Positions 1,046 through 51,712 of a DNA stretch of 64,000 nt are shown here, one piece after another. Source of the DNA: an uncultured Alphaproteobacteria bacterium. GTDB taxonomy: Bacteria; Pseudomonadota; Alphaproteobacteria; CAAHEQ01; UBA3637. The notes under the pieces were generated by a model. The model did no database searches. It was not told where the DNA came from and saw only the letters and a list, made by a program, of their open reading frames with translations. The first letter of the stretch is position 1, and each line of letters starts with the position of its first letter. Location of the stretch: NCBI GenBank assembly GCA_934234055.1, contig CAKQGY010000003.1:21142-85141 (forward strand). The letters are read 5' to 3'. The position numbers were made by a program, and so were the translations under genes.

Positions 1046-1897
1046 ATGAAACCCAAAATCACAGTTATAGTCGGCCCCACGGCCAGCGGTAAATCAGCCC
1101 TTGCACTTCGTCTGGCTTTGGCCACATCCGGCACGATTATCAATGCCGATGCCATTCAAACTTATCACGATTTATCAATTATTTCCGCGCGTCCGACGCC
1201 GGCCGAAACCGGGGCTGTTCCGCATTTGCTTTACGGCTACTTAGGCCCAAACGAGCAAAGCTCTGTCCAAGATTGGCTCACGCGCGTTGTCCCGGTTTTA
1301 AAGGACACCCCCAATCCGATTTTGGTTGGTGGCACAGGGCTTTACATTTCTGCGCTGATCAACGGCCTCAACGATATGCCCGACATTCCGCCCGAGGTTC
1401 GCGCCTTTGTGCGTCAGATGGACATTGACGAAGTCCGCCGTCGTATGCCGGATTTCCCATTCCCGGATCCCCAGCGTCAGCGTCGCGCGCTGGAAGTGCT
1501 CCTTGCATCCGGCCGGCCGCTATCGTATTTCCAAAGCCAACCCAAAAAGAAGGTTCTGGACGCGGATTTTCGGGTGCTTTTTATCAATCCGAATCGCGCG
1601 GATTTATATGAAAATTGCGCCAACCGCTTTCATCAAATGATCGGGCAGGGGGGTATAGAGGAGGTTCAACACCTGCTTACATTAAACCCCACCGGCGGCG
1701 TTCTGGGAGCAATCGGTGTATCCGAAATTACATCGTATTTACAAGGGGTTATTACACGCGAACAGATGATTAAATCTGCGATTTTGGCCACCCGCCATTA
1801 CGCCAAACGTCAAGTCACCTGGTTCCGGCATCAAATTCCGGCCGACATTGTCATTCGCGATTCGGCGTCTTTTGACCTTACAACTCTGCCGACGTAA
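1046..1897 (+). CDS. miaA: tRNA dimethylallyltransferase
   Basis: P-loop GPTASGKS and MiaA-like sequence throughout. Confidence 0.9.
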   Translation: MKPKITVIVGPTASGKSALALRLALATSGTIINADAIQTYHDLSIISARPTPAETGAVPHLLYGYLGPNEQSSVQDWLTRVVPVLKDTPNPILVGGTGLYISALINGLNDMPDIPPEVRAFVRQMDIDEVRRRMPDFPFPDPQRQRRALEVLLASGRPLSYFQSQPKKKVLDADFRVLFINPNRADLYENCANRFHQMIGQGGIEEVQHLLTLNPTGGVLGAIGVSEITSYLQGVITREQMIKSAILATRHYAKRQVTWFRHQIPADIVIRDSASFDLTTLPT

Positions 1898-2801
1898 TAG
1901 ACTTATCCGCCATCAGGCGTTGCAAGATTTCATTCATCATTTCCGGCGTGTCATAGGCTACTTCAATTGTGCCACCCGCACCGTTCCAGTTGATTTTGAC
2001 CACTGTTTTCAGCAGGGCACTTGCCTGCCGTTCCAGGGCGATCAGTTCTGCATCTTTTTGTTCTGATTTTTCAAAGGGTTTCGGCGGTTTTGGCACCTTG
2101 ATTTTTTGGCTGTTGGCCAGTTTTTCGGTTTCCCGCACGCTCAAACCTTTCACTACGATTTCCCGGGCCAAAGCGGTTGCATTTTTAGCCGTCAACAAAG
2201 CGCGTGCATGACCGATACTTATTTCTTTATTTTCAACCAGTTGCTTGATTTCTTCCGGCAAACTCAACAGGCGCAGCATATTCGCCACATGGCTCCGACT
2301 TTTGCCCACGATTCGCGACACTTCGTCCTGAGTATAAAAGAATTCGCTCATCAGGCGATTATACGCCGCCGCTTCTTCCAAGGGATTCAAATCCTCGCGT
2401 TGCAGGTTATCAATCAAGGCCACTTCCATGGCTTCTTCATTACTTAAATCCTTGATAATAACGGGTAATTCTTTCAGGCCAACGATTTTTGCCGCGCGGA
2501 ATCGCCGCTCCCCGGCGATAATTTCATAGACCGCCGACCCCTCACTATGCCGCACCAACAGGGGCTGCAACACACCTTTTTCCCGAATCGATTGGACCAA
2601 GTCTTCCAAAGCGGAATCCGAGAACACCCGCCGCGGCTGATACAAACTCGGTAATAAATCATCAATTGGGATTTGATGGATCATATTTCTTTGTTTTTCA
2701 ACAGGTTGATCAAACTCTTCCGGCAGGAAATCATCCCCCATCAAAGCACTTAAACCTTTACCCAGTCCTAAATTTTTATCCATTATTTTCTCCTTTTTCA
2801 C
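1878..2801 (-). CDS. parB: Chromosome partitioning protein ParB
   Basis: ParB box motifs (GERRFRAA, IENLQRED) and HTH. Tail-to-tail overlap with miaA. Confidence 0.9.
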   Translation of the reverse strand: MKKEKIMDKNLGLGKGLSALMGDDFLPEEFDQPVEKQRNMIHQIPIDDLLPSLYQPRRVFSDSALEDLVQSIREKGVLQPLLVRHSEGSAVYEIIAGERRFRAAKIVGLKELPVIIKDLSNEEAMEVALIDNLQREDLNPLEEAAAYNRLMSEFFYTQDEVSRIVGKSRSHVANMLRLLSLPEEIKQLVENKEISIGHARALLTAKNATALAREIVVKGLSVRETEKLANSQKIKVPKPPKPFEKSEQKDAELIALERQASALLKTVVKINWNGAGGTIEVAYDTPEMMNEILQRLMADKSITSAEL

Positions 2802-3552
2802 GTCTTAATACTTCGCCGGCCAAGCGGATATAGCTTTGCGCACCGACACTTCTGAAATCATATAACATCACAGGCTTCCCGTGCGAGGGTGCTTCGGGAA
2901 TGCGCACATTACGCGGAATGACGGTATCGAAAACCAAATCCCCAAAGAATGATTGCACATCATTCACCACCGAGCGCGACAACCGCGACCGCCCGTCATA
3001 CATCGTCATCACAATTCCCTCCACTTTCAGGGTCGGATTAAAGTTTTTCTTAATTCTTTCAATGGTTTTCATCAGGTCAGCCACCCCTTCCAAAGCCAAA
3101 TATTCGCACTGCACCGGTATGATCACCGAGGTTGACGCCACCAACGCATTCATTGTCAGCAGCCCCACGGCCGGCGGACAATCCACAAAGATATAGTCAA
3201 AATCCGCCAACCCCGCCATCGCTTTTTTCAGGTAAAATTGCGGGCGCTCCACATCGGCCAATTCAATATCAACGCCCAGCAATTCCTGACTGGCCGGCAG
3301 GACATATAAATACGGAATCGCTGTCGGCAGCACGCATTCCGCCGCCGCATAGCGCCCCGTTAAAACCGTATAAGAACTTTTACCCCCCTGGCACCGTTTC
3401 AGACCCAAACTGACCGTCGCGTTTCCCTGCGGATCCAAATCAATAATCAACACTTTTTTCTTTAACGCTGACAGGGCCGTGGCTAAATTCACCGTCGTTG
3501 TTGTTTTACCGACACCGCCTTTTTGGTTGGATATGGAAAAGATTTTAGTCAT
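2776..3552 (-). CDS. parA: Chromosome partitioning ATPase ParA
   Basis: Deviant Walker A KGGVGKTTT. Overlaps parB start. Confidence 0.9.
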   Translation of the reverse strand: MTKIFSISNQKGGVGKTTTTVNLATALSALKKKVLIIDLDPQGNATVSLGLKRCQGGKSSYTVLTGRYAAAECVLPTAIPYLYVLPASQELLGVDIELADVERPQFYLKKAMAGLADFDYIFVDCPPAVGLLTMNALVASTSVIIPVQCEYLALEGVADLMKTIERIKKNFNPTLKVEGIVMTMYDGRSRLSRSVVNDVQSFFGDLVFDTVIPRNVRIPEAPSHGKPVMLYDFRSVGAQSYIRLAGEVLRREKGENNG

Positions 3553-4147
3553 TTGAAACCTCCGTTATTTTTAACACATAACTATTTGATTTTGTTATAC
3601 TTTTTATTTTTTCTATTTGGAATTTACAGGGGCAGTTTTGAATCTCGCTGTCGCAATTTTCCCCTTTCAAAAACAGGCATACAGCCTCTTTTTTCATCAG
3701 GGGTTTTCCCCATTTTAGTAATTGTTCCAATGGCGCCAAGGCCCGCGCCGTGATTACATCGGCCGCCACACCGGACACCGTCTCAATCCGCTGATTTAAA
3801 ACAACGGCATTCAGATTTAAATTTCTAATTATCTCTTTCAAAAACAAGGATTTTTTCATATCACTTTCAATTAAAATCACTTGCCGATTTGGGCGGTTAT
3901 CAGCTTTATTTAAGATTGCCAACACCAACCCCGGAAAGCCCGCGCCGCTGCCCATATCCGCCACAATTTCAGCCCGTTCCGGCAGGCATGTATACAGTTG
4001 TGCCGAATCCACAATATGCCGATTCCATATATCCGAAATTGTGGTTGGGGAAATTAAATTGACTGCCTGTTGCCACTTTTTCAGCAAAGCTATATACCTG
4101 TCCAAATCGGGGCGTGCCGTTGTCAATAATGTGTCAAGTGAGTCCAT
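3545..4147 (-). CDS. rsmG: 16S rRNA m7G527 methyltransferase RsmG (GidB)
   Basis: SAM motif DMGSGAGFPG. The likely true start is MDSLDTLL at 4147. The track's longer ORF reads through a parS site. Confidence 0.85.
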   Translation of the reverse strand: MDSLDTLLTTARPDLDRYIALLKKWQQAVNLISPTTISDIWNRHIVDSAQLYTCLPERAEIVADMGSGAGFPGLVLAILNKADNRPNRQVILIESDMKKSLFLKEIIRNLNLNAVVLNQRIETVSGVAADVITARALAPLEQLLKWGKPLMKKEAVCLFLKGENCDSEIQNCPCKFQIEKIKSITKSNSYVLKITEVSND

Positions 4148-4163: not shown

Positions 4164-4179
4164 TGTTTCACGTGAAACA
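4164..4179. promoter_or_regulatory. parS: parS centromere site (perfect TGTTTCACGTGAAACA)
   Basis: Exact 16-bp palindromic parS consensus, read directly in the sequence. Confidence 0.85.
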
Positions 4180-4227
4180 TTTCTAACATATACTTTTTCA
4201 TTTTTCAAGCATTTTTGCCGGAAAAAG

Positions 4228-4243
4228 TGTTTCACGTGAAACA
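4228..4243. promoter_or_regulatory. parS: parS centromere site (perfect TGTTTCACGTGAAACA)
   Basis: Second exact copy, 64 bp from the first, upstream of rsmG-parAB. Confidence 0.85.
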
Positions 4244-4245
4244 TT

Positions 4246-4686
4246 TTAACGGAAAATAAGTTTAAGGTTATTTTGATCCCGGCAAGACCCGGGTTGTCCG
4301 TTAACCAGCATGCGTTCGGCCCCCAAGGACCGACCCGTTAAATAAGAACAAGTTGATTTATCCAATTGATTTAATTGAATAAAAAATGTATTTTGTGTTT
4401 CGCTGCCCAGGTTCCAATTCAATCCCGAAAACGGGGAAGTCATCAGGCTATTTTTAGAAATCCCGGTATAATAATCATTCGGCCGCGCCATTTTAACTTC
4501 CATCACGGTTTGGCTGATATCGTTCAAAATTTGGGTTTGTTTAGCCCGGGACAGGCCGCTGTTCACCGCACCGACAGACTGTTGGGTGAGGGTGCCTTGA
4601 ATGGCTAAATTTGACATAATATCAACCATTTGCGCAGAAACAGAACCCGATAAAAGCAACAGTATACAGCATACCCATTTATGCAT
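4246..4686 (-). CDS. Hypothetical Sec-secreted protein with a C-terminal Cys pair
   Basis: Signal peptide (LLLLSGSVSA|Q). Two Cys about 25 aa apart near the C-terminus. No family recognised. Confidence 0.45.
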   Translation of the reverse strand: MHKWVCCILLLLSGSVSAQMVDIMSNLAIQGTLTQQSVGAVNSGLSRAKQTQILNDISQTVMEVKMARPNDYYTGISKNSLMTSPFSGLNWNLGSETQNTFFIQLNQLDKSTCSYLTGRSLGAERMLVNGQPGSCRDQNNLKLIFR

Positions 4687-4689
4687 AAT

Positions 4690-5379
4690 CTATTCTCCCC
4701 AAAAATTATCTTTAATTTTGGTCATAAATTGCCGGTGGTCCTCCAATTCCGCCTCGCTGACCGGAAAAGACCGCGGTTCATGATAGGGACGCGCGGGTTG
4801 ACCACTTGAATTAAATTGTTGATTTTGTTGTAATTTTGACGCCATATTAAGCACCAAACCCGGTTCACGCCCACCGATTAATTCCAAATAAACCTCGGCC
4901 AATAACTCACTGTCCAATAACGCGCCGTGCACCGTTCGGGCGGACGCATCCACCTTGAAACGCTTGCACAATTCGTCCAAATTGACACGGCTGCCGGGAA
5001 ATTTTTGCCGCGCCATTATTAAAGTATCTATCACACGATCGTATGACAGAACCGGCCGGCCGCAGGCCATCAGTTCTGCATTCAAAAACTTCATATCAAA
5101 CGCGGCATTGTGAATAACCAGTTTAGAATCCTCACCGATAAAATTGATAAATTTTTCAGCAACTTGACGAAATGTCGGCTTGTCCTTGACAAATTCATTC
5201 GTGATGCCGTGAATGGCAATCACGTCTTGGTCCATTTCACGTTCGGGGTTTAAGTATTCTTGGAAAGTGCGCCCCGTCGGGATATGATCCACCAGCTCAA
5301 CACACCCGATTTCAACAATCTTGTGCCCTTGTTCCGGGTCTAAACCCGTGGTTTCGGTATCTAAAACAATTTCTCTCAT
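4690..5379 (-). CDS. dnaQ: DNA polymerase III epsilon subunit (3'-5' exonuclease)
   Basis: Exo I motif VLDTETTGLDP and an exo III region. Start likely MREIVLD. The track ORF extends to a GTG at 5484. Confidence 0.85.
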   Translation of the reverse strand: MREIVLDTETTGLDPEQGHKIVEIGCVELVDHIPTGRTFQEYLNPEREMDQDVIAIHGITNEFVKDKPTFRQVAEKFINFIGEDSKLVIHNAAFDMKFLNAELMACGRPVLSYDRVIDTLIMARQKFPGSRVNLDELCKRFKVDASARTVHGALLDSELLAEVYLELIGGREPGLVLNMASKLQQNQQFNSSGQPARPYHEPRSFPVSEAELEDHRQFMTKIKDNFWGE

Positions 5380-5422
5380 AAGAGGAAGTATATCTAAAAT
5401 CTGCCCATTTTGCAAGCGAATT

Positions 5423-5687
5423 TGTGGATAATGTGGATAAATAGGTCTGTTTTTAAAAAGAGGTCTAAAACAATTAAATTGCACTCAGTCTAAATGCACA
5501 CCGGAAAAATCCCGAAAAATAGACCTGATTCAAAAAATGAACCCAGTTATCCACACGATTCGGGTAAATTTCAAAAACCTGTCAAGCAAAAAATAAAAAA
5601 GATATGCACATTATGCACACCCCCTTCTAATACTAATATATATTTATTATATAAGATAGGCAGGTTGAAAGTGGATAAAATCCACAG
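5423..5687. promoter_or_regulatory. AT-rich intergenic region with a cluster of DnaA boxes (candidate oriC or DnaA-regulated region)
   Basis: TGTGGATAA at 5423-5431 and 5432-5440. TTATCCACA at 5547-5555. AGTGGATAA/ATCCACA pair at 5670-5687. ATGCACA appears three times. Lies next to parS and parAB. Confidence 0.45.
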
Positions 5688-5759
5688 GTTTGTGAAATCT
5701 TGATTGCAAAGATGTAAATTATATGGTATCATAATCATTAAATGTAAAGGAGCATCGTC

Positions 5760-7157
5760 ATGTTGACTATTTATAATACGGAAAATCATCGCAAAGAAAT
5801 CTTTAAACCGATCCGCGAAGGGGAAGTTTCGTTCTATGCCTGCGGACCGACAATCTATAACTATGCCCACATCGGAAATATGCGGGCTTTTGTATTTTAT
5901 GACTTATTAAACAGATACTTACGCTATAAAGGATACAAAGTTAAATTCTGTATGAACCTGACGGATGTGGATGATAAAACCATTCGCGATTCACAGGCAC
6001 AGGGCAAAAAATTGCGCGAATTTACGGATTTTTATAAAGAAGCGTTCTTAAAAGATTGCGCAACGCTGAATATCTTGAAGCCGGACTTTAATCCGCGGGC
6101 AACCGAAGAAATACCCGCCATGATTGAGCTGATCCAAAAATTGTTAGAAAAGGGATACGCTTATCAGGCTAAAAACGGAGATATTTACTTTAAAATCAGT
6201 GCGTTCAGAAACTATGGACAAATGGCCGGAATTAATGCCGACGACTTGCGCGTGAATGCGGACGGGCGCTTGACGGAAGATGAATACGAAAAAGAAAATG
6301 CGCAGGATTTCGCGCTGTGGAAAGCCTGGACCGAAAAAGACGGCGAAAATTACTGGGATACGCCATGGGGAAAGGGGCGGCCGGGGTGGCATATTGAATG
6401 CTCGGCTATGGCACGGAAATACCTGGGGCAGCCGCTGGATATCCATGCGGGCGGAATTGATTTGGTCTTCCCCCACCATACCAACGAAATCGCGCAGTCG
6501 GAATGTGCTTACGGGTGTAAGTTTGTGAACTATTGGATGCATAACGAACACATCACCGTCAATGGCAAAAAAATGTCAAAATCGCTTGGAAATTGCTATA
6601 AAGTCAATGAGTTATTGGAAAAAGGCTATTCGCGTGAGGCGATCCGATACGAGTTTATTAAAGCCCACTATCGCCAAAATATGGACTTTCAAGAAAAAAG
6701 CCTGGCAGGGAATCAGTCGGTGATTGATAAATTCGGGAACTTTATAAACCGCCTGAGAACGGAAGTCAAGGGTGCCGGCTGGGAGAACTGCGGGACGGCG
6801 ATTGAACGCGCTCTGGCGGGCTTTGAAAAGGGCATGGACGATGATTTAAATACGCCACTGGCCTTGGTTGCCGTGTTTGACCTGATGACCGAGGTCAATA
6901 AACACTTTGATGCCCTGAGCCCTGAAAATGCACAGGCGATTTTGGCCGCGATGACGCGAATCAATTCGGTGCTAGCTGTGTTTCCGGAAGAAAAGCAACA
7001 AACTTTGACTGCCGCGCAGCAGGATCTGATTGAACGGCGGCAACAGGCGCGCTTGGCTAAAGATTGGGCGACGGCGGACGCTTTGAAAAAAGAGTTGATA
7101 AATCAAGGGGTTGAAGTGAAAGATACACCCAAAGGGCCGGTGTGGCGGTTGATCTAA
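5760..7157 (+). CDS. cysS: Cysteinyl-tRNA synthetase
   Basis: HIGN and KMSKS class I motifs. Full length. Confidence 0.95.
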   Translation: MLTIYNTENHRKEIFKPIREGEVSFYACGPTIYNYAHIGNMRAFVFYDLLNRYLRYKGYKVKFCMNLTDVDDKTIRDSQAQGKKLREFTDFYKEAFLKDCATLNILKPDFNPRATEEIPAMIELIQKLLEKGYAYQAKNGDIYFKISAFRNYGQMAGINADDLRVNADGRLTEDEYEKENAQDFALWKAWTEKDGENYWDTPWGKGRPGWHIECSAMARKYLGQPLDIHAGGIDLVFPHHTNEIAQSECAYGCKFVNYWMHNEHITVNGKKMSKSLGNCYKVNELLEKGYSREAIRYEFIKAHYRQNMDFQEKSLAGNQSVIDKFGNFINRLRTEVKGAGWENCGTAIERALAGFEKGMDDDLNTPLALVAVFDLMTEVNKHFDALSPENAQAILAAMTRINSVLAVFPEEKQQTLTAAQQDLIERRQQARLAKDWATADALKKELINQGVEVKDTPKGPVWRLI

Positions 7158-11111: not shown

Positions 11112-11206
11112 GAAAAAACGGTTGACATGGGGCAAAAAAGCCCTATATGACATAAGCAACGGGTTTTAATCGGGGGAATGTAAAACCCGCTGTTATGAGG
11201 GGAACG

Positions 11207-11241
11207 CAGAGCGATGGCAGACGATCGCTCTGCACTTTTTT
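11207..11241 (+). terminator. Rho-independent terminator (CAGAGCGAT-loop-ATCGCTCTG then T-run)
   Basis: 9-bp perfect stem, 8-nt loop, TTTTTT. Sits between convergent genes. Confidence 0.6.
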
Positions 11242-11251
11242 ATGGGAAAAG

Positions 11252-12412
11252 CTATTCACTGATCGTATCAAAATACGCGTTGACGGCTCGAACCAGAGCT
11301 TCGGCCAGGTCGCGTCGATAAGAGGCTTTTTGCAGATTTTTATCCTCGGTGCGGTTGGATAAATACCCAAGTTCCACCAAAACAGAAGGAATGTTGGGCG
11401 ACTTTAACACCACAAAACCGGCCATACGATGAGCGTTCGGAACCAGAGGGACTTTGCGCTTCATCTCGCGCACGACCAAATCGGCGTATTGGGCGGACTT
11501 GTTCATCGTGTCGGTCTTGGCCAAATCCAGCAAAATGTTGCCGGCGTCGGCGTCAACCTCGGATAAATCCATACCGAGAATGATGTCAGCTTTGTTTTCG
11601 CGCTCGGCCAAAGCGGCGGCCTCGGCATCGGAGGCGCGCTCGGAAATCGTGTAGACCGACAGACCCCGAGCCGAGGGATTTTTGGCACTGTCGGCATGAA
11701 TGGATATGAATAAATCCGCATGGGCGGCGTGCGCTTTTTTAATCCGACTGCGCAGAGGAATAAATACATCAGAATCACGCGTCAGGACAACTTTGTAGCC
11801 GGCTTTTTTAAGCAGGTCGCGAGTCTCGCGCGCCATGTTGAGCGTGATGTTTTTCTCGTAATGGCCGGAACGCGAAATCGCACCGGGATCCTGACCGCCG
11901 TGGCCGGCATCCAACACAATGACACGCTGGGTCTTTTTAGGAGTTGTAAAGGGACGCAAACCGCCAGATCCTGTTTTGGTTTCAGAAGAAGAAACAGGTA
12001 AAACGGTCGGAGCATTTCTGGATAAATCTAATACAAAACGCCAACTTTTGCCACTTTGCGGTTTGAGCAGAAAATGCTTTTCGGTCAGAGCCTCGTTTGG
12101 CAGATCCAAAACGATCCGCGCGGTGCCGGCAAACGGTGTGCCCGTGCGCAAACCTCCGACAAAATTGACGGGACTGAACTTTTGAGCCTTGGCCAAGGGG
12201 GAAAAAGTAGTGTTCTTGAAATCCAGAACCAGGCGCGGCGGGTTAGATAAGCGCGAAACAAGCACCTGAGCTTCGGCCGATAAATCTGCTACAAAGCGCA
12301 CCGCGTCGGCCGTGGAAGACGCCAGACGCATACCCTTGATTTCCTGAGCCAGAGCCGTCGTGCCGATTAAAAAACACAGCAAAAAAGCAACCAAAAAAGA
12401 AATATACTTCAT
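11252..12412 (-). CDS. amiC: N-acetylmuramoyl-L-alanine amidase (AmiC-like, with N-terminal AMIN domain)
   Basis: Signal peptide and Amidase_3 motifs (VIVLDAGHGGQDPGA, HADS). Confidence 0.85.
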   Translation of the reverse strand: MKYISFLVAFLLCFLIGTTALAQEIKGMRLASSTADAVRFVADLSAEAQVLVSRLSNPPRLVLDFKNTTFSPLAKAQKFSPVNFVGGLRTGTPFAGTARIVLDLPNEALTEKHFLLKPQSGKSWRFVLDLSRNAPTVLPVSSSETKTGSGGLRPFTTPKKTQRVIVLDAGHGGQDPGAISRSGHYEKNITLNMARETRDLLKKAGYKVVLTRDSDVFIPLRSRIKKAHAAHADLFISIHADSAKNPSARGLSVYTISERASDAEAAALAERENKADIILGMDLSEVDADAGNILLDLAKTDTMNKSAQYADLVVREMKRKVPLVPNAHRMAGFVVLKSPNIPSVLVELGYLSNRTEDKNLQKASYRRDLAEALVRAVNAYFDTISE

Positions 12413-12645: not shown

Positions 12646-14817
12646 ATGTCAAAACAAATGCTTATTGATGCGACGCACGCCGAAGAAACGCGCGTGGTCG
12701 TGCTGGACGAGGGGAGATTAGACGAGTTTGATGTTGATACCTCTACCAAAAAACAAATCAAAGGAAATATCTATTTAGCCAAAGTGGTGCGCGTGGAACC
12801 GTCGCTGCAAGCCGCGTTCGTGGAATACGGCGGCAATCGGCACGGATTCTTGGCCTTTGGGGAAATTCACCCGGACTATTACCAAATCCCGGTGGCCGAT
12901 CGCGAAGCCATTAAAGAACAAATGAAAGCCGAAGCCGCAGCCGAAAAAGCGGCGCGTGATTCGGAAGAAGAAACCGAAACCGAAGATCAGGAAGTGGAAA
13001 CTGTCAGTGATGCCGAAGCCGATGATATGATTCGGCACCGCTCGTCATTCTATCGGAAATACAAAATCCAGGAGGTTATTCGCCAGGGGCAGGTGATGCT
13101 GGTCCAAGTGGTCAAAGAAGAACGCGGCAATAAAGGCGCGGCACTGACGACCTATTTATCCTTGGCCGGCAGATACAGCGTTTTAATGCCGAACAACGGA
13201 AAAGGCGGCGGTGTTTCGCGTAAAATCAATAATGTGAAAGAACGCAAAAGCCTGCGTGAAATTGTGGAAAAACTGCCGATCCCGGAGGGTATGAGCGTGA
13301 TTATCCGCACCGCCGGACAGGGTAAAACCAAAGCCGAAATTAAACGGGACTTTGATTACCTGATTAAAACCTGGATGCAGATTCGTAAGGAAACACTGGC
13401 CTCTATTGCGCCGAAACTGATCCACGAAGAAGGCGATATTATTAAACGCTCGCTGCGGGATGTCTTTACGCCCGATATTGACGAAATTATCGTGGAAGGT
13501 GAAGATGTCTTTAAGACGACAAAGGCATTTATGAAAATCCTGATGCCGGCGCAGGTCAAGAAAATTAAACAATACAAAGGGGAACTGCCCTTGTTCCAAC
13601 AATATATGGTGGAAGCACAGCTGGAAGCTATTCACAGTAATATCGTGCAATTGCGTTCGGGCGGGTATCTGGTGATTGATCAGACAGAAGCCTTGGTTGC
13701 GGTGGATGTGAACTCGGGCCGGGCAACGCGCGAACATAATATTGAAGAAACCGCGCTGCGGACGAACCTGGAAACCTGTGATGAATTGGCGCGGCAGTTG
13801 CGACTGCGGGATATGGCGGGCCTGATTGTGATCGACTTTATTGATATGGACGAACAACGCAATAACGCCGCGGTGGAACGACGCTTGAAAGAGGCTTTGA
13901 AACGCGATCGGGCGCGGATCCAGGTTGGGAAAATCTCGGGCTTTGGGCTGATGGAAATGTCGCGGCAACGGTTGCATTCCAGCTTTTTGGAAAGCAGTTA
14001 TCATATTTGTCCGCATTGCGGCGGAAAGGGCTTGGTGCGCTCAACGGAATCGTGTGCGATGCATGCGCTGCACATCTTGGAAGAAGTGGCCGCCAAAAAT
14101 AAAGGCGCTACCTTGGTGATGAGCTTGCCCTTGGAAGTTGCGGGATATGTGCTGAATATGAAACGCGAAACGCTGGGCGACTTGGAAAAACGATTCGGAA
14201 TTAAAGTTCAAATCTTGGCTGACACAACATTGGTGAAAGCGTCGGACTTTAAGATGGAACGAATCCGCGAAAACGGCGACCGCTGTGCGGTGTCGGTGCA
14301 ACCGAACATGCCGCGCAGATCCGATCGGAACAACTCGAAAATGCAATCTATTGACGCAATTGTGCAGGCCTCTATCGCCGAAGAAGAAGCGGAAGAAGAA
14401 GCCGGCGGGCGACGCGGGCGGCGGCGTAAACATCGGCGGCGCGATTGGAACCGTAAACAAAAACAGCTGGCAGAGGGACAGGCAGAGATGAATGATGCCC
14501 GAGAGGCTGAGACGGGGGTGGCCGACGTCCGAGAGACGGCTGAAAAAAGTGAAGAAAATTTTACGGTGGTGGAGCAAACATCGCTGCAAAATGAAGACAA
14601 ACCCGCCGGGAAAAAAGGAAAATATCGCGATCGCGGGCGGCGGCGTCGGGGACAAAAATCGACGGATAAGGCTTTGGTCCCGGCGCAGGTGTCGGCTCCG
14701 GCAGTGCGGGAAGAAAATGTGCCCGTCAAGGCCGAAATGCACCCGGTTCCGGTGGCGACAGATGAAGCCCCTAAATCAGCCAAAAAAGGCGGTTGGTGGA
14801 ATCGCTTGATGGGGTAA
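12646..14817 (+). CDS. rne: Ribonuclease E
   Basis: S1 domain, DNase I-like catalytic domain, Zn-link CPHCGG, then an Arg/Glu-rich C-terminal scaffold. Confidence 0.9.
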   Translation: MSKQMLIDATHAEETRVVVLDEGRLDEFDVDTSTKKQIKGNIYLAKVVRVEPSLQAAFVEYGGNRHGFLAFGEIHPDYYQIPVADREAIKEQMKAEAAAEKAARDSEEETETEDQEVETVSDAEADDMIRHRSSFYRKYKIQEVIRQGQVMLVQVVKEERGNKGAALTTYLSLAGRYSVLMPNNGKGGGVSRKINNVKERKSLREIVEKLPIPEGMSVIIRTAGQGKTKAEIKRDFDYLIKTWMQIRKETLASIAPKLIHEEGDIIKRSLRDVFTPDIDEIIVEGEDVFKTTKAFMKILMPAQVKKIKQYKGELPLFQQYMVEAQLEAIHSNIVQLRSGGYLVIDQTEALVAVDVNSGRATREHNIEETALRTNLETCDELARQLRLRDMAGLIVIDFIDMDEQRNNAAVERRLKEALKRDRARIQVGKISGFGLMEMSRQRLHSSFLESSYHICPHCGGKGLVRSTESCAMHALHILEEVAAKNKGATLVMSLPLEVAGYVLNMKRETLGDLEKRFGIKVQILADTTLVKASDFKMERIRENGDRCAVSVQPNMPRRSDRNNSKMQSIDAIVQASIAEEEAEEEAGGRRGRRRKHRRRDWNRKQKQLAEGQAEMNDAREAETGVADVRETAEKSEENFTVVEQTSLQNEDKPAGKKGKYRDRGRRRRGQKSTDKALVPAQVSAPAVREENVPVKAEMHPVPVATDEAPKSAKKGGWWNRLMG

Positions 14818-30331: not shown

Positions 30332-32067
30332 AACGATCCCCGAAAGAGACTTTTTACTATGTGGGGCAGGAAATCCCCTATCACCGGTTGGATCGCTATC
30401 GGTGCTTGGACGCGACAACGCAGGTGGTGCTGCAAAAAGCGCGCGGGCGTATTACCTTGATTATCGGGGCGTTGGCGTTGTGCTTTGCGGTGATTGTAGG
30501 GCGGCTGTTTTACCTGACGATTGTGAACTATCAGGCGCGGAACTTTACGCCGTCGGTCCTGAAAACCGAATATATGACGGGGCGACAAAACATTGTGGAT
30601 CGGCACGGGATTGTGTTGGCGACCAGTATCCCGACGGCGGACTTGTCTGTCAATCCCTCTAAAATTAAAAACCCCCAAGAAGTGGCCGAAAAATTGGCTA
30701 AGGCGATTCCGTCGCTGTCGTATGAGGCGGCCTATCAAAAACTGACGGCGGGGAATAACTTTCAATATATCAAACGCGGCTTAACGCCGGTGGAACGCAA
30801 TGCGGTGAACTGGATCGGGAACCCCTATTTGGAAGAGCGGCAGGGAGAAAAGCGCGTCTATCCGCAGCAAAACCTGTTCTCGCATTTAATCGGCAGTGTG
30901 GATATTGATAATGTCGGAACGGCGGGGCTGGAAAAAGCCTATAACGAAGAACTGAAAACGGATCCGGTGATGCTGTCGCTGGATACATCGGTTCAGGAAA
31001 TGACGCGGCAGGCCCTGATGCAGGGGATTCAAAAATACAAAGCCCGCGCGGGTTTAAGTGTCGTAATGAATGTCAAAAACGGTGAAATTCTGGCGTCGGT
31101 GTCGCTGCCGGATTATAATCCGAATCGGTCAGCGGGGAAAAAAGATGATCGCTTTAATAAAGTCAGCCTGGGCAGTTATGAATTCGGATCGGTGTTCAAG
31201 TTATTCAATACGGCGATGGCGTTGGAAGCCGGCGATATTCGGCCGACGGACTCGTTTGATGCGAAAAACACCCTGAAAATCGGGCGCAAAGTGATTGAGG
31301 ATTTTCGCGGGCAAAATCGAGTGCTGACGGTGCCGGAAATCCTGATACACTCGTCCAACATCGGGTCGGCACGAATCGCCCTGCAATCGGGGTGGCAAAA
31401 ACAACGCGACTTTTTGGGAAAATTGGGCTTTTATCAAAAGCTGCCGATTGTGCTGTCGGAACGGGGATCAACACTGTATCCGACGGGGGCAAAATGGGCG
31501 GATATGACCTCGGCCAGCGTGGCATACGGCTATGGCGTGTCGGTGACGCCCCTGCACCTGATTGCGGCGGTGGCAGCCATTGCAAACGACGGAATCTATC
31601 ATGTGCCGACCTTTATCAAAGACGGCAATAAAGGCAGGCCCGAATATCAGGTTATTTCACGTAAGACCTCGGAACAAATGCGCCATATGATGTGGGCGGT
31701 GATCAATTGGGAAATGAAAGAAAGCAACCCGGTGTATGGCTATGCCGTGGGGGGGAAAACAGGATCGGCGAACCTGCTGTCCGAGGACGGACGGTATATC
31801 CAAGGGTCGCTGCGCACCAGTTTTGTGGGAGTTTTTCCGATGGATGATCCGCAATATGCGGTGCTGGTGACATTGGAGGATCCGAAAAAAATTAAAGAAA
31901 CATGGATGTTTAATAATGCGGGGTGGAATGCCAGGCCGATCGGCCTGAACATCATTGCGGAGATTGCACCGTATTTGGGTGTGATGCCGCGGCCGCGGTG
32001 GGAGCAACCCTCCTATATTGAGCAAGCTATTGAAAAGAGTATTGAATACAAGAAGAGGAAAAAATGA
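30328..32067 (+). CDS. ftsI: Peptidoglycan D,D-transpeptidase FtsI (PBP3)
   Basis: SxxK (SVFK), SSN and KTG motifs. Confidence 0.9.
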   Translation: MKRSPKETFYYVGQEIPYHRLDRYRCLDATTQVVLQKARGRITLIIGALALCFAVIVGRLFYLTIVNYQARNFTPSVLKTEYMTGRQNIVDRHGIVLATSIPTADLSVNPSKIKNPQEVAEKLAKAIPSLSYEAAYQKLTAGNNFQYIKRGLTPVERNAVNWIGNPYLEERQGEKRVYPQQNLFSHLIGSVDIDNVGTAGLEKAYNEELKTDPVMLSLDTSVQEMTRQALMQGIQKYKARAGLSVVMNVKNGEILASVSLPDYNPNRSAGKKDDRFNKVSLGSYEFGSVFKLFNTAMALEAGDIRPTDSFDAKNTLKIGRKVIEDFRGQNRVLTVPEILIHSSNIGSARIALQSGWQKQRDFLGKLGFYQKLPIVLSERGSTLYPTGAKWADMTSASVAYGYGVSVTPLHLIAAVAAIANDGIYHVPTFIKDGNKGRPEYQVISRKTSEQMRHMMWAVINWEMKESNPVYGYAVGGKTGSANLLSEDGRYIQGSLRTSFVGVFPMDDPQYAVLVTLEDPKKIKETWMFNNAGWNARPIGLNIIAEIAPYLGVMPRPRWEQPSYIEQAIEKSIEYKKRKK

Positions 32068-34880
32068 ACAGTTGTGAACTATTGGCCGAAATCGGCGTGA
32101 AAGTGAACGGAGAATTGCCGGAGATAACGGGCTTGGCAATTCATGCGGGGGCTGTGCGATCCGGTGATGCCTTTGCCGCGATGAAGGGAGCCGCACGCGA
32201 CGGGGCGGACTATGTGGCCGAGGCTGTTCAAAACGGTGCGGTGCTGATCCTGGCCGAGCGCGAAATAGTGGCCGATGTGCCCGTGGTGGTGGTGCCGAAC
32301 CTGCGGCGGCAGGTGTCGCGTCTGGCGGCTCGGTTGTATCCGTCGGATCAGGTGATGAAACTGGCCGTGACGGGGACGAACGGAAAAACCTCAACCGTCT
32401 ATTATGTGCAGCAACTGTTAAATCGGCTGGGGATTTCGGCAGCCAGTCTGGGGACAATCGGCGTGGATTCGGCCCGGGGACATATCGAGGGGTATATGAC
32501 AACGCCGGATGCAATTACTTTGAATAAAACGCTGCACGACCTGCAAACACAGGGAATCCGCGTGGTGGCGTTGGAGGCATCCAGCCACGGTTTGGATCAA
32601 GGGCGGTTGGACGGCTTGATGTTCCGGGCGGGGGCTTTTACGAATCTGACGCAAGATCATTTGGATTATCATAAAACCATGGCGGCCTATTTGGATGCGA
32701 AAAGTAAGTTGTTTTCGGACTATGTGGCCGCGGACGGTTTGGCGGTGTTGAACGCCGATGATTCCGCCTTTGCACACTTGGCCGATATGGCGAAAGAGCG
32801 AGGCTTGCGCGTTATATCCTATGGTCGGCAGGGGGCGGATTTTCGCCTGATTTCCCAAACGCCGACAGAGTATGGGCAGTCCGTTGTGTTTGAGGCCGGT
32901 GGCCGGCGGTATGAGACGAACCTGGCGATTGTGGGGGACTTTCAGGTGATGAACCTGTTTGCCGCCATGGGGCTGTGCCTGGGAGCGGGGGTTGCCATAG
33001 AGCAGATCATCCCCCTGTTGCCCGAGTTGCAAGCCCCCAGCGGCCGGATTGAACAAATGGGAACTTTGCCGAACGGGGCGCGGGTCTTTGTGGACTATGC
33101 GCACACGCCGGACGCGGTGGAGCGGGTGTTGATCTCGCTGCGGGCGCATACGAAAGGCAAGTTGGTGTGTGTGATCGGCTGTGGCGGAAATCGCGATACC
33201 GGCAAGCGGCCTTTGATGGGGGCTGCGGCGGATCGGTTGGCGGATCGGGTCTATATCACCGATGATAACCCGCGGTTTGAGAATCCGGCGGCGATTCGGA
33301 CGGCGATCCGAGAGGCCTGTCCGAATGCCGAAGAATACGACAATCGCGAAGAAGCGATCTATCGCGCGGTTAAAAGCTTGGAGCCGCAGGATGTGCTGGT
33401 CATTGCAGGTAAGGGGCACGAAGCCGGGCAAACCATCAACGGGATAACCTATGCCATGGATGATCGGGTGGAAGCACGTTTGGCTATTATGAGCCGAACA
33501 ACCCCTGCGCTGTGGACGGCCGAGGAATTAAAATTGGCTCTGTCGGTCAAAGTGCCCGAACGCATACAAGCGTATGGCGTTTCTATTGACACACGAACAT
33601 TGAAGTTGGGGGATCTGTTCCTGGCGATGAGCGGGGAAAACAGCGACGGACATGCCTTTGTCAAGCGCGCCGTAGAATTGGGCGCGGCGGCGTGCGTGGT
33701 GACTCATTTGGTGGCCGAAGTGCCGGCGGAAAAGCAAATTGTGGTGGCCGATGTGATGAATGCGCTGGAATCCTTGGCGCGGTTTTCGCGTATGCGCAGT
33801 TCCGCTACCTTTATCGGGATTACGGGCTCGTCCGGCAAGACAACTACCAAAGAAATGTTAAAGGCGATTCTGTCTGCCCAAGGGCAAACGCAGGCGACAC
33901 AAGGCAACCTGAACAACCAGATCGGAGTGCCGCTGACCCTGGCGCGGGTGGGAGCCGGGACACGCTATGCCGTGATTGAAATGGGTATGAACCACAGTGG
34001 TGAGCTGTATCACCTGTCGGATATGGTGCGACCGGATATAACGATTATCACCTCTATCGGGTTGGCGCATCGCGCGTTTTTCAAGACCGAAGCCGATGTG
34101 GCCAAGGCCAAATCAGAAATCTTTGAGTTCCAAAATCGGCAAGGGGTGGCCGTCCTGAATAAAGCAGATGATTTTTACGACTTTTTAAAGCAGGCCGCCG
34201 CGGCGCAAGGTATCGCACGGCAGGTCTCGTTCGGGGCGGATAAAACCGCCGATGTGGCGTTGGTGTCGGCGGTATCGACCGGCGATAAAACAACGGTGGA
34301 TTTTATGACACAAGGCCGGACGTATCAAATGACCTTGGGCTTTGTCGGAACACACTATGTATCGGACGCCCTGGGGGCGTTGGCCGTGGTGTTGGCCGCA
34401 GGGGGCGATTTGGAGCAGGCGATCAAAACGCTGGAAACCCAAAGCCCGGCGGCAGGACGTGGGGCGGTGTCAAGCGTGATTTTCGCGGGGCATCATATCA
34501 CCCTGATAGATGATGCCTATAATGCTAATCCGTCGTCTATGGCGGCGTCGGTGCGGGCCCTGGGTCTGAGGCGCGGGGGGCGGAAAATCGCGGTGCTGGG
34601 CGATATGTTGGAGTTGGGCGATTTGGGCCCGAAACTGCACGCCGATATGGCACCGGTGTTGAACAAAGCCGGCGTGGATCGGGTTTATTTGGCGGGCGAG
34701 CTGATGACGCATTTGTGGGCCGATGTGCCGGCGGATAAACAAGGTGCGCATACCCGAACCCCCGAAGAATTGTTGCCGATTTTGGCGCGCGACCTGCAAG
34801 ACGGGGATTTTGTGTTGGTCAAGGCTTCGCACGGGGCGGGGCTGTATCGGTTGATTCAAATGATGAAAGGAAATAAATAA
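32064..34880 (+). CDS. murE-murF: Fused MurE (UDP-MurNAc-tripeptide synthetase) and MurF (D-Ala-D-Ala adding enzyme), 938 aa
   Basis: Two Mur ligase ATP sites ([22 protein letters not shown]). MurE ends ...AGKGHEAGQ and MurF begins at about aa 480 with no stop between them. Confidence 0.85.
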
Positions 34881-44953: not shown

Positions 44954-46207
44954 ATGACGAAACCGCAAACTTCCCGTGCGTGTGCCGTGCGCCTGTTGAC
45001 GCAGGTGTTGAATCACGGCCGGACAATAGAGCGCGCCGAAACGGCTGATCCCGGGACGCAAAAGTTGTCTGAATCGGATCGTCAATTTGTGCATTTAATC
45101 TTGCTGACAACGGTGCGTCGGTTGGGACAGATTGACGCGGTTTTGGGGCGGTTGTTGCGCAAGCCGTTGCGGGGTAAACTGGCTCCGGTGAATCAGATTT
45201 TGCGGATCAGTGTGGCGCAATACCTGTTTTTGAAAACGCCGGCCTATGCGGTGGTCAATACGGCGGTGGAACTGACGCGCGCGCTGGGCTTTGCAGGTAT
45301 GACGCGCCTGGTCAACGGGGTGTTGCGCACCTTGGAACGACAGGCAGATTCCCTGGCGGGGACAGAGGTTATTCAAAATATCCCGCTCTGGTTGCGACAG
45401 GTGTGGGAGGCTTATTACGGGCCGGATATGGTGCGTCAAACGGCCGAGGCGGTGCTGATCCCGCCGCCATTGGATATTACGGTGGCCGAAAACGCTGCGG
45501 ATCTGGCCCGGCGGTGGCAGGGAGTTGTATTACCAACCGGCGGGGTGCGGGTAGCGGCGGCCTCCCCCACCGAATTAGAGGGCTTTCAAACGGGTAAATG
45601 CTGGGTGCAAAACGGTGCTGCGTCGGTGCCGGCACAGCTGCTGGGTGATGTGGCGGGCTTGCGGGTAGCGGATTTATGCGCTGCCCCCGGAGGTAAGACG
45701 GCGCAACTGGCCGCCCGCGGTGCGCATGTGGCGGCCTATGACATCTCGGACAAGCGGCTGGAAAGACTGCGTGAAAATATGCGGCGCCTGGGCCTGGAAA
45801 ATCAAGTCTCGGTGCATTGTGGGGATATTTTGACCCTGACGGATCGGGACATTTATGATGCCGTGCTGCTGGACGCACCGTGTTCGGCGACCGGCACGAT
45901 TACCCGCCACCCCGAGGTGATGTATCACCAAACGCCCGCCGATGTGGCGCGCTTGGCCGAATTACAACGGCAAATGCTGCGTCAGGCGATTGCCCTGACA
46001 AAACCGGGGGGTAAAATTGTGTTTTCCACTTGCTCACTGCAACCCGAAGAGGGCGATGCCGTCGTGCAGGCGATGGGTGATCAAATCACGGTTATGCGTC
46101 CGACGGACGATCGCTGGAAACCGTTTTTAACGCCTTTCAGCAGCCTGCGATTCCTGCCGGCCATGGGGTATGACGGCTTTTACGCCTGCCTGATGCGCAG
46201 GCACTAG
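44954..46207 (+). CDS. rsmB: 16S rRNA m5C methyltransferase (RsmB/Sun family)
   Basis: NusB-like N-terminus, SAM motif DLCAAPGGKT, catalytic Cys in STCS. Confidence 0.8.
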   Translation: MTKPQTSRACAVRLLTQVLNHGRTIERAETADPGTQKLSESDRQFVHLILLTTVRRLGQIDAVLGRLLRKPLRGKLAPVNQILRISVAQYLFLKTPAYAVVNTAVELTRALGFAGMTRLVNGVLRTLERQADSLAGTEVIQNIPLWLRQVWEAYYGPDMVRQTAEAVLIPPPLDITVAENAADLARRWQGVVLPTGGVRVAAASPTELEGFQTGKCWVQNGAASVPAQLLGDVAGLRVADLCAAPGGKTAQLAARGAHVAAYDISDKRLERLRENMRRLGLENQVSVHCGDILTLTDRDIYDAVLLDAPCSATGTITRHPEVMYHQTPADVARLAELQRQMLRQAIALTKPGGKIVFSTCSLQPEEGDAVVQAMGDQITVMRPTDDRWKPFLTPFSSLRFLPAMGYDGFYACLMRRH

Positions 46208-46668
46208 GGCGCGGTGGGGGTGGCCTGTGCCTGTAAATGGCGTGTGATATATTGTAAAAACTCAACAAATGTTTGAAAAACAAACAAAGATTGATAGGTA
46301 AAGCGATCTAGTAAGCGGTATTCTTTGGTCGCAAAGTCATAGGTGATCAGTGTCTCCCACCCATAACCCAACAATAATTTTTTCTTCATCACGGCGTTGT
46401 TCTGGCAAAAAGCATAGTGCTGCAAAATGCCGGGGTGCGTAAAGGCGCCTTTGTTGCGTTCAATGTTGTTCAGGGCAAACAGGGTTATCCCGTTCCAAAA
46501 CAGGCCGTTCGTTGCCCCCAAAAACGACACATAATCCAGCGGAATGGGGGGCACCCCCGCTTTGACCAGCGTGACCGAGGCTTGCTGAACGGTTTTGGGA
46601 TCCACGGGCGGGAAAACCACCGCATAGTGCTCGTATAAGCATTTCAGGCATTTATTGAGTTCTGACAT
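46204..46668 (-). CDS. SUKH (Smi1/Knr4)-like putative immunity protein
   Basis: PIPLDYVSFLGATNGLFWNG matches the SUKH-1 LPxDYxxFLxxxNGG core. Last gene of the T4CP operon. Confidence 0.4.
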   Translation of the reverse strand: MSELNKCLKCLYEHYAVVFPPVDPKTVQQASVTLVKAGVPPIPLDYVSFLGATNGLFWNGITLFALNNIERNKGAFTHPGILQHYAFCQNNAVMKKKLLLGYGWETLITYDFATKEYRLLDRFTYQSLFVFQTFVEFLQYITRHLQAQATPTAP

Positions 46669-46671
46669 TTT

Positions 46672-47352
46672 TTACCTCCCCGGCATACTGCGCAGCGCCA
46701 AATCGCGCAAAGCATTTTCCGAAAAACCGGCCACAACACTGCGGTCTTGCTTGTTCTTACCACCCGATCCCGTCAGCAGCCCCAACGGAATATACACTTT
46801 ACCCGTCGGGACGGGGACATACAATTGCGCCGGGGTCAGAGCGCCCTCGGGGCCCAAAATCTGTTTGTTCAGATACAGATGTATCAGCTCGTGAAACGGG
46901 CGAGCCTGAATAAACACCAGGTTTTCAAAATCAACCTTACCGCCGTAATCCAGCGGATACTTCAAATGCACGGTAAAGTTCTCGGGGATTTGGCCGTGCT
47001 TCATATAGAACAGACCCTCTTCCGTAACGCCGGCCGCGCGCAGGTCATTCGCGTGGTGATAGGATAAAAAGCGCGTAAAATCGCGAATCGTGCGGTTCAG
47101 GAACTTTTGCCGGGCGACAAAATCGGCGGCTTCGTCCGGATAATAGGGCACAACCATCAGGTCCATACCCGGAAAGTTCATCTCGTTAAACAGGGACTCC
47201 CAATGGGATTGATCTTGTTCGGCCAACTCCAAACCGTCCATAAAGTGGTCGTCCATCACCGGGGCTTGCAGCAACCTGTCCCAATCGGCAAAAATATCCG
47301 TTGCGTTCAACGACGCGGACAGAGACATTTGTTGGGTGTCATTTTCAGCCAT
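46672..47352 (-). CDS. Hypothetical protein with an HExxH motif (candidate metallopeptidase-type toxin or effector)
   Basis: ARPFHELIHLY. No other recognisable family. Lies between the T4CP and the SUKH-like gene with 3- and 12-bp gaps. Confidence 0.35.
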   Translation of the reverse strand: MAENDTQQMSLSASLNATDIFADWDRLLQAPVMDDHFMDGLELAEQDQSHWESLFNEMNFPGMDLMVVPYYPDEAADFVARQKFLNRTIRDFTRFLSYHHANDLRAAGVTEEGLFYMKHGQIPENFTVHLKYPLDYGGKVDFENLVFIQARPFHELIHLYLNKQILGPEGALTPAQLYVPVPTGKVYIPLGLLTGSGGKNKQDRSVVAGFSENALRDLALRSMPGR

Positions 47353-47364
47353 GGAATCCTCCTA

Positions 47365-49548: not shown

Positions 49549-49557
49549 CCCCTCACA

Positions 49558-50667
49558 CTAAAATAAATCGCGCACGGCTTCCAGCACCGTCGCATCGCCT
49601 TTGTCCGCCGCTTTGGGCAGCGCTTGTTCAAAGGACGGCAATTCTTCCGGTCCGCCCAGGTCTGTCCGACAGACCACAACTCCCTGCCGTTTCCAGGTCT
49701 CGCCCATGTCGGCCGCATTGATAATCGTGCCGTTCTTTTCTATCAGCAGAGGGAACACCTCTTGCGCCAAGCCCGCGCTTTTCAGTTTTTGAGCCAACGC
49801 CCCTGCCTCGGTCCGCAGTTGATATACCGGTGAAATCCGATGCGAGCTTTCCGAAAACCATAGCGGTTCTTCATCGTTAAAGAACTCCTCATCGGCCAGC
49901 CAATCGCCTTTTTCCGTATCCGTCAGGCACAGGACAACCTTGTCCGTGGCAATGCCGATGTAGTTGATGAACAGTTTATTCAACTGCACATCTTTGACAA
50001 CCTGATAATTCCCCGCGAACAAAATCGCCACCAAATCCTCTTCCAAACGCACCGGTTCAGGCAATTGAATCTGATCCAGCGGCATATTGCTGATATCCTC
50101 GTCCATAAAGGCCGGCCGAGTGGTCTCTTCCGCTTCGGGCGCGGCTACGGGAATGGGCTCGGCCATCGGTGTTGGCGCAGGGGCCGCGGGCACGGTGGCC
50201 GGCTCGGCAAACGCAGCGTCCATTGTGCGTCCCGCCACTTTGGCCGAGGGTCTTCCCACAGACGCAATCGGCCGCGGGCGCACTTTTTTGTGCGAGGCTT
50301 TGGCTTTAATTTTAACTTGATTTTTAATAATCTTGTTCGGGTTCGGCCGAAAGAAAAACGATTTGACCTTGCGAAACACGATCATAAAGGATTTGCGCCA
50401 TTGAATCTGATAGGATCCCCACCAAATCAGCATAAACGCCGGAATCATCAGCAGCACGGTAATTACGAAAATCCAATCACCGGTGGTATTGATAACCCAG
50501 CCCGAGCGAAACTCGTTCCACACATAGCGCCAATTATCCCAGGAGAAAATGTTAAAGCACCAATTTTGCCCGTAAAAACTACGCAGATACCACCCGAAAT
50601 AAAATATTCCGATGACCGCTCCGACCACAAGTGCACGTCTCAATTTTTTCATAACAGACCTTTCCAA
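49558..50667 (-). CDS. Hypothetical membrane-anchored protein (first gene of the T4CP operon)
   Basis: N-terminal TMs, a central Ala/Pro-rich linker and an acidic C-terminal domain. No family recognised. Confidence 0.4.
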   Translation of the reverse strand: MERSVMKKLRRALVVGAVIGIFYFGWYLRSFYGQNWCFNIFSWDNWRYVWNEFRSGWVINTTGDWIFVITVLLMIPAFMLIWWGSYQIQWRKSFMIVFRKVKSFFFRPNPNKIIKNQVKIKAKASHKKVRPRPIASVGRPSAKVAGRTMDAAFAEPATVPAAPAPTPMAEPIPVAAPEAEETTRPAFMDEDISNMPLDQIQLPEPVRLEEDLVAILFAGNYQVVKDVQLNKLFINYIGIATDKVVLCLTDTEKGDWLADEEFFNDEEPLWFSESSHRISPVYQLRTEAGALAQKLKSAGLAQEVFPLLIEKNGTIINAADMGETWKRQGVVVCRTDLGGPEELPSFEQALPKAADKGDATVLEAVRDLF

Positions 50668-50788: not shown

Positions 50789-50823
50789 GTCGCACATCAA
50801 AAACCAAAACAAAGGACTGCAAA

Positions 50824-51699: not shown

Positions 51700-51712
51700 T
51701 GAAAGGACAATC

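Follow-up and report, generated by a model that had tools for sequence, protein, structure and literature searches.

A predicted DnaA-dependent replication origin between dnaQ and cysS in an uncultured gut alphaproteobacterium

Introduction

Near described counterparts of the site considered here include Cori, the chromosomal origin of the alphaproteobacterium Caulobacter crescentus. In the part of PMC1914354 that draws on Brassinga 2001, the boundary genes of Cori-type origins are hemE and/or COG1806, and hemE-linked origins are placed in Rickettsiales and Wolbachia. In this study, we analysed a 64-kb stretch of DNA (contig CAKQGY010000003.1; hereafter the window, in which all positions are given) that derives from an uncultured gut alphaproteobacterium and lies on a 213-kb scaffold of a human metagenome. 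Its 380-bp spacer between dnaQ and cysS (5380-5759) is, in our judgement, very probably the DnaA-dependent chromosomal origin of replication (oriC) of this organism, and two parS sites located 1.2 kb to the left are the predicted loading sites for ParB.

A second relevant system is the incC-type basal unwinding system of Bacillus subtilis (Richardson 2016/2019; PMC8287927). The search rule given for such systems in PMC8287927 (Pelliciari 2021) asks for a DnaA box with at most two mismatches that is oriented 5'-TTATCCACA-3' towards the DnaA-trios, optionally for a second, tandem box with at most four mismatches, and further for three or more trios that have adenine at the centre (3'-NAN-5') and are separated from the boxes by a spacer of at most 16 bp. 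The B. subtilis entry in Table S1 of PMC8287927, written 3'->5', is AATAGGTGT TTAGGTGT CCGG GATGATAATGAAGATGAT, which on the top strand reads 5'-TTATCCACA AATCCACA GGCC CTA CTA TTA CTT CTA CTA.

A DnaA-box cluster at a switch in GC skew

The perfect DnaA box TTATCCACA occurs three times in the 64 kb, where 0.38 copies are expected, and all three lie in a 133-bp section of the dnaQ-cysS spacer (5423-5555). Three perfect boxes were reached in one of 100 shuffled sequences. When one mismatch is allowed, the window holds 26 boxes compared to an expectation of 12.7, a number reached in none of 100 shuffles, and five of these boxes are found within 256 bp (5423-5678). Beyond the perfect boxes, the spacer carries four or five weaker ones that extend up to position 5687. 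Two features by which an oriC is recognized, a cluster of DnaA boxes above chance and an AT-rich unwinding element beside the boxes, are both present, the latter as a candidate at 5628-5658.

A first-pass annotation of this DNA, made from the sequence without database searches, had described tandem boxes, an inverted box and a near-palindrome in an AT-rich region between dnaQ and cysS. Pattern scans recovered each of these elements in place, including the near-palindrome AGTGGATAAAATCCACAG (5669-5686), which contains a TTATCCACT box abutting AAATCCACA, and the spacer has a GC content of 32% compared to approximately 50% for the window. The same annotation had listed three ATGCACA repeats. Copies are indeed present at 5494, 5604 and 5613, but they are the cores of the degenerate DnaA boxes AAATGCACA, ATATGCACA and TTATGCACA, and the heptamer is not enriched across the window (12 copies, 9.6 expected). 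For both reasons, ATGCACA was rejected as a separate repeat family.

The GC skew of the plus strand is approximately -0.17 to the left of about 5.5 kb and approximately +0.2 from there up to 46 kb. In the cumulative GC skew of the window, the lowest point is reached at position 5633. Addition of the 9.5 kb of scaffold that flank the window on the left, for a total of 73.5 kb, leaves the minimum at this position, and all 15 of the 1-kb bins to its left are negative. Between 5.7 and 46.2 kb, positive plus-strand skew is exhibited by 30 of 30 genes, including six that are encoded on the minus strand (M23, xseA, dus, amiC, tadA and a histidine kinase gene), for which the skew at third codon positions ranges from +0.06 to +0.39. 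To the left of the site, all seven genes have negative skew, including miaA on the plus strand. In the window, the switch therefore follows position and not coding strand. A change from negative to positive has the polarity of an origin where the leading strand is richer in G than in C, and the orientation of the genes, which on either side are mostly directed away from the site, fits this polarity. A skew plot had been proposed with the first-pass annotation as a check on an origin in this neighbourhood, and, run locally, it favours one: in 11 of 12 relatives, which are introduced below, a local cumulative-skew minimum likewise lies in the spacer or within about 130 bp of it.

A predicted unwinding module in the spacer

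No 30-bp stretch in the 64 kb is less stable than that at 5628-5658 (-25.6 kcal/mol, compared to -29.7 kcal/mol for the next). This stretch is preceded by an arrangement of the kind described by the rule of PMC8287927, in which the plus-strand boxes ATATGCACA (two mismatches) and TTATGCACA (one mismatch) at 5602-5619 are followed by a spacer of 4-7 bp and then by four or five well-supported candidate trios, (CTT) CTA ATA CTA ATA. The order and strand of the elements are identical to those of the B. subtilis system, with two adjacent boxes, a GC-rich spacer, trios of the CTA type (3'-GAT-5') and an AT-rich run, and in both cases additional boxes are present, which in the window are spread over approximately 270 bp. 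There are also differences. The site is flanked by dnaQ and cysS, that of B. subtilis by dnaA and dnaN. Counted from the proximal box, the spacer measures 7 bp compared to 4 bp (CCGG) in B. subtilis. In addition, the platform boxes of the window are its weaker ones, with one or two mismatches and G at position 5, and its perfect boxes are located 50-180 bp from them.

The motifs and their conservation, the switch in skew and the instability of the duplex are direct observations. They suggest a conventional course of initiation, in which binding by DnaA and ParB, unwinding and origin firing are all predicted steps. Presumably, the sites occupied by DnaA would be the strong boxes (positions 5423-5440 and 5547-5555), the weaker tandem pair (5602-5619) and the inverted box at 5670-5678. 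A DnaA-ATP filament could then extend from the tandem boxes over the 7-bp GC-rich spacer onto 3'-GAT TAT GAT TAT-5' (5627-5638) and open the stretch of 94% A+T at 5628-5658. Forks would leave in both directions, and dnaQ and cysS would be transcribed away from the opened region. Finally, ParB loaded at the two parS sites would direct the segregation of newly replicated origins.

Conservation in relatives

The 12 relatives are genomes from gut metagenomes with DnaQ proteins 59-80% identical to that of the window. Four are species-collection genomes (L005-L008) and the other eight are contigs (L085-L092) that were reached via DnaQ homologs with 62-80% identity. The nearest species-collection genomes derive from uncultured Alphaproteobacteria of human and sheep gut metagenomes (DnaQ 64-70% identical), which may be members of the gut order designated RF32 in GTDB, and the DnaQ homologs carry the name DNA polymerase III subunit epsilon. 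When the Joint Genome Institute (JGI) metagenome contigs were scanned for the conserved block, written as a degenerate DNA pattern, no match was obtained.

The gene order, with cysS divergent from dnaQ and the latter followed by the gene for a 146-amino-acid (aa) protein, parS, rsmG, parA and parB, is kept in 11 of the 12 relatives, and L090 retains all but the adjacent cysS. The layout of boxes, spacer and AT-rich stretch is kept in all 12, with pure A/T runs of 12-27 bp at the place of the candidate unwinding element. An alignment of the 13 spacers (window and relatives) shows 50% identity overall, within which there are sharp islands of conservation. These comprise the left box, AGACCT, CGANTCG, GTCAA with an A-tract, the tandem boxes, the CTA repeats, the right box and both predicted promoters. 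GGATAA of the left box and the CGANTCG palindrome are invariant (13 of 13), the tandem boxes occupy the same columns in every sequence, CTA is nearly invariant at the aligned trio position, and (T)AGACCT is found at its aligned column in 11 of 13. The GTGGA of the right box TTATCCACT is conserved as well, and the perfect box at 5547-5555 is found only in the window. Regarding the predicted promoters, both hexamers of that of dnaQ fall in conserved columns, and in that of cysS the conserved letters are TTG (-35 element) and TA (-10 element). The CGANTCG palindrome contains GANTC, which occurs 219 times in the window with 219.8 expected, and there is thus no genome-wide signal of CcrM-type selection.

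DnaA boxes do not generally accompany dnaQ promoters. When the 500 bp preceding dnaQ were scanned in 76 other alphaproteobacterial loci, boxes with at most one mismatch were absent from 72 and present as a single copy in four, whereas the same scan yields three to six boxes in each of L005-L008, and the spacers of L085-L092 contain one to five. It is therefore the skew switch, and not dnaQ itself, with which the boxes travel.

When coding strand is held constant in the relatives, genes on the two sides of the site differ in skew by approximately 0.2. Most of the genomes that share this origin have a GC content of 32-39% and a weaker, more strand-dependent skew, with L086, L089 and L091 at 45-48% GC. 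The genome of the window is approximately 50% GC with an unusually strong skew (~0.2, and 0.3-0.4 at third codon positions).

Comparison with Caulobacter-type origins

The spacer and the Caulobacter and Rickettsiales/Wolbachia origins belong to the same bacterial class and have several features in common. In each case, DnaA boxes and an AT-rich stretch are found in an intergenic region of approximately 400 bp, which lies near an rsmG(gidB)-parA-parB operon and is not adjacent to dnaA. The differences concern the boundary genes, which are dnaQ and cysS in the window, where the hemE and COG1806 boundary genes are not found in the 64 kb, and the accessory sites. Specifically, neither full CtrA sites (TTAA-N7-TTAA) nor a conserved IHF consensus is present in the 13 origins examined here. 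Moreover, the boxes of the window match the Escherichia coli consensus, and parS is located 1.2 kb from the boxes compared to approximately 8 kb in Caulobacter. Because neither dnaA nor hemE lies in the window, the gene context is atypical for Alphaproteobacteria, and this absence together with the lack of CtrA sites indicates that the context is not of the Caulobacter type. In summary, the site has the sequence features of a generic DnaA origin together with a predicted basal unwinding module, and it lacks those that define hemE-type origins.

The adjoining partition locus

The chromosomal parS consensus is reportedly TGTTNCACGTGAAACA. Two perfect 16-bp palindromes that match it, both TGTTTCACGTGAAACA, are found close to parA and parB, which encode ParA and ParB proteins with complete domains. 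There are exactly two copies of this sequence in the 64 kb, 64 bp apart from start to start, and no further match was found in the window even with up to three mismatches (0.32 expected). These observations bear out the earlier claim of two exact sites 64 bp apart upstream of rsmG-parA-parB. The genes had been assigned correctly as well, since Pfam agrees on rsmG, parA, parB, dnaQ and cysS, and the unannotated 146-aa gene had gone unmentioned. As in other chromosomal ParABS systems, the palindromes lie beside parA-parB and near the predicted origin, and the number of sites varies among relatives, with one to four parS-like sites (up to two mismatches) between the 146-aa gene and rsmG. Nothing about the system is unusual, and both sites of the window are upstream of rsmG, not inside parB.

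The low-GC relative L090 has nine parS-like sites with at most one mismatch, compared to two in the window. Eight of them flank the two ends of rsmG-parA-parB (11162-11410 and 13710-13958) and one is at 4040. The 146-aa gene is syntenic in all 12 relatives, between dnaQ and the parS/rsmG operon, and its product probably has no part in the machinery of the origin. For parB, the public gene call (in L001) is 301 aa with a start at 2783. The coordinates of all features are collected in Table 1.

Table 1. Positions of the predicted origin elements, boundary genes and partition locus in the window
Feature	Position	Strand	Sequence, support or remark
parB	1878-2801	-	Pfam ParB_N, HTH_ParB, ParB_C; longest open reading frame (ORF) from 2801
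parA, Walker-type partition ATPase	2776-3552	-	Pfam AAA_31, CbiA, ParA
rsmG (gidB), first gene of rsmG-parA-parB operon	3545-4147	-	Pfam GidB, 153 bits
parS site 1, perfect 16-bp palindrome	4164-4179		TGTTTCACGTGAAACA; 17 bp upstream of rsmG ATG
parS site 2, perfect 16-bp palindrome	4228-4243		TGTTTCACGTGAAACA
146-aa protein, N-terminal signal-peptide-like segment	4246-4686	-	No Pfam family; between parS and dnaQ
dnaQ, DNA polymerase III epsilon-type 3'-5' exonuclease; left boundary gene	4690-5379	-	Pfam RNase_T, 138 bits
Predicted dnaQ promoter	5387-5415	-	-35 TTGCAA (5415-5410), 17-nt spacer, -10 TATACT ending at 5387; consensus match only
Two abutting perfect DnaA boxes	5423-5431, 5432-5440	-	TTATCCACA, two copies
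AGGTCT/AGACCT, three copies	5443-5448, 5461-5466, 5521-5526		In variable stretch
Weak DnaA box	5492-5500		AAATGCACA; within variable stretch
Perfect DnaA box, opposite orientation	5547-5555	+	TTATCCACA
CGATTCG palindrome (CGANTCG, contains GANTC)	5556-5562		Abuts perfect box 5547-5555
TGTCAAG and A-tract	5580-5601		TGTCAAGCAAAAAATAAAAAAG; conserved block directly 5' of tandem boxes
Tandem DnaA boxes	5602-5619	+	ATATGCACA (2 mismatches), TTATGCACA (1 mismatch); proposed unwinding platform
GC-rich spacer	5620-5626	+	CCCCCTT; between tandem boxes and trios
Candidate DnaA-trios	5627-5638	+	CTA ATA CTA ATA; bottom strand 3'-GAT TAT GAT TAT-5'
Candidate DNA unwinding element, 31 bp	5628-5658		94% A+T; least stable; holds skew minimum 5633
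Right-hand box	5670-5678	-	TTATCCACT; abuts AAATCCACA
Right-hand box	5679-5687	+	AAATCCACA; not conserved in relatives
Predicted cysS promoter	5704-5732	+	-35 TTGCAA, 17-nt spacer, TG-extended -10 TATCAT; consensus match only
cysS, cysteinyl-tRNA synthetase; right boundary gene	5760-7157	+	Pfam tRNA-synt_1e, 405 bits

Counterevidence and alternative explanations

Several observations weigh against an origin in this spacer. The skew minimum was established locally, over 73.5 kb of the 213-kb scaffold, and in the right arm the skew is no longer positive beyond 46.2 kb, at the convergent junction between rsmB and the gene for a 154-aa protein (hyp154). In L090, the local minimum is 4.5 kb from the box cluster, at a locus where cysS is not the neighbour. 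When the skew of the relatives is fitted with four strand-by-side classes, the effect of strand (~0.08) nearly equals that of position (~0.10), and a divergent gene pair alone would give a small local minimum. The trio rule (at least three NAN repeats) is permissive in AT-rich DNA, and only 8 of the 12 relatives conform to it. Lastly, the window contains neither dnaA nor hemE, which commonly bounds alphaproteobacterial origins. A tblastn search with domains III-IV of E. coli DnaA, using a query that Pfam recognized as DnaA, did not find dnaA in the window or in loci L001-L084, such that the gene is neither in the window nor within 10 kb in the relatives among these loci. Similarly, hemE (URO-D) had no match among 51 ORFs scanned across the 64 kb. 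The first-pass annotation had named dnaA and hemE as landmarks to be located, and neither was found in the 64 kb, which does not argue against an origin.

The break in skew at 46.2 kb marks the start of a block (46204-53271) that carries hyp154, hyp226, a gene for a TraG/VirD4-type coupling protein, hyp369, DUF3078, mscL and xth and whose skew is that to be expected from the other replichore. These genes are found in identical order in L085 and L088, but there they adjoin holA, on the side of the origin where dnaQ lies. An assembly chimera was rejected as the cause because four independent assemblies share the rsmB/hyp154 junction. Rather, the block is likely to have been translocated between replichores, with a skew that has not yet re-equilibrated, and such an event supports the view that skew in this genome reports the direction of replication. 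The coupling-protein gene stands alone, which suggests that it is the remnant of a conjugative element.

The first-pass annotation had left the choice between an oriC neighbourhood and promoters under strong DnaA control. If the boxes served solely to regulate the divergent dnaQ and cysS promoters, coupling the proofreading subunit to the level of DnaA, the origin would lie elsewhere, for example beside dnaA. The positions of the boxes are compatible with such a role, as the perfect pair at 5423-5440 ends 7 bp from the predicted -35 element of dnaQ and the right box is approximately 25 bp upstream of that of cysS. Furthermore, promoters and boxes are both conserved, and dnaA is not nearby. However, regulation by itself explains neither a position-dependent reversal of skew at exactly this place nor the occurrence of the least stable 30-mer of the window between the boxes, and it accounts neither for the conserved layout of boxes, spacer, trios and AT-rich DNA nor for the scarcity of boxes at the 76 other alphaproteobacterial dnaQ loci, 72 of which have none upstream. 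We therefore consider exclusive promoter control improbable. Regulation may well coexist with origin function, and DnaA may tune the expression of dnaQ and cysS as an added role, since the same boxes flank both promoters. Of the two original options, the oriC is favoured because the box cluster itself lies at the switch in replication polarity, which also narrows the claim from a neighbourhood to the spacer.

The skew switch might instead be mimicked by a rearrangement breakpoint or a divergent gene pair, with the box cluster acting as a DnaA-titrating or DnaA-reactivating locus of the datA/DARS kind. Coding strand does account for about half of the skew signal in the relatives, at least one inter-replichore translocation has occurred in this genome, and the minimum of L090 is elsewhere. 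Nevertheless, six minus-strand genes on the right and one plus-strand gene on the left follow position rather than strand, and the switch is common to 11 of 12 relatives despite differing flanking rearrangements. To our knowledge, neither a conserved unwinding module nor a parS neighbour is expected of the datA/DARS-type loci of E. coli, and we consider this explanation as a whole very unlikely. Least credible of all is an origin that belongs to a secondary replicon (chromid or megaplasmid) with its own parABS. This idea takes its appeal from the many plasmid and chromid maintenance modules in which parAB and parS lie beside the replication region. It is opposed by the single-copy core genes that flank the site (holA, dnaQ, cysS, mutS, ATP synthase F0 genes, the entire mraW-ftsZ cluster for division and cell-wall synthesis and rpsA), by the lack of a plasmid-type initiator (Rep) gene and by parS sites whose sequence is the chromosomal consensus.

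Implications

With the dnaQ-cysS spacer taken as a chromosomal oriC, the mechanism of initiation would be standard, and the example leaves the understanding of how origins work unchanged. What is new is the lineage and the gene context, namely dnaQ and cysS as boundary genes, parS at a distance of 1.2 kb, the absence of CtrA sites and the presence of two conserved motifs that are not DnaA boxes. The site adds to the known alphaproteobacterial origins one that has neither a hemE context nor CtrA sites and yet carries a clear module of boxes, spacer, trios and AT-rich DNA. For a family of uncultured gut Alphaproteobacteria that metagenomes alone have revealed, it also provides an origin call that is precise and testable. 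With the origin anchored, growth rates could be estimated from metagenomic coverage (peak-to-trough ratio) and the replichores can be oriented in fragmented assemblies, as illustrated by the translocated block at 46-53 kb that it exposes.

A more elaborate scenario can be assembled from these features, but we regard it as speculative and doubtful as a whole. In this scenario, the origin would have left an ancestral hemE context and would operate without CtrA sites by means of a Bacillus-type module. CGANTCG and TAGACCT would mark a lineage-specific control of initiation, either dependent on methylation or exerted by an origin-binding protein, and DnaA would directly couple the expression of dnaQ to initiation.

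Additional features of the region

Rfam and tRNA scans returned nothing in the region. A terminator-like hairpin at 5627-5595 was judged to be a by-product of the tandem box repeat and the A-tract. Likewise, a 69-aa ORF at 5494-5703, which is a gene call in L004, is presumably spurious, given that the alignment of the region consists of islands of motifs with frame-breaking indels between them. The predicted -10 element of dnaQ (TATACT) ends 7 nt short of the ATG, with no visible Shine-Dalgarno sequence. For these reasons, the dnaQ mRNA may be leaderless in this species. In relatives such as L005, a dnaQ leader is present and includes AAGGA.

Farther to the right, in the division and cell-wall cluster, a single plus-strand ORF of 938 aa (32064-34880) carries two sets of Mur-ligase domains and looks like a fusion of murE and murF.

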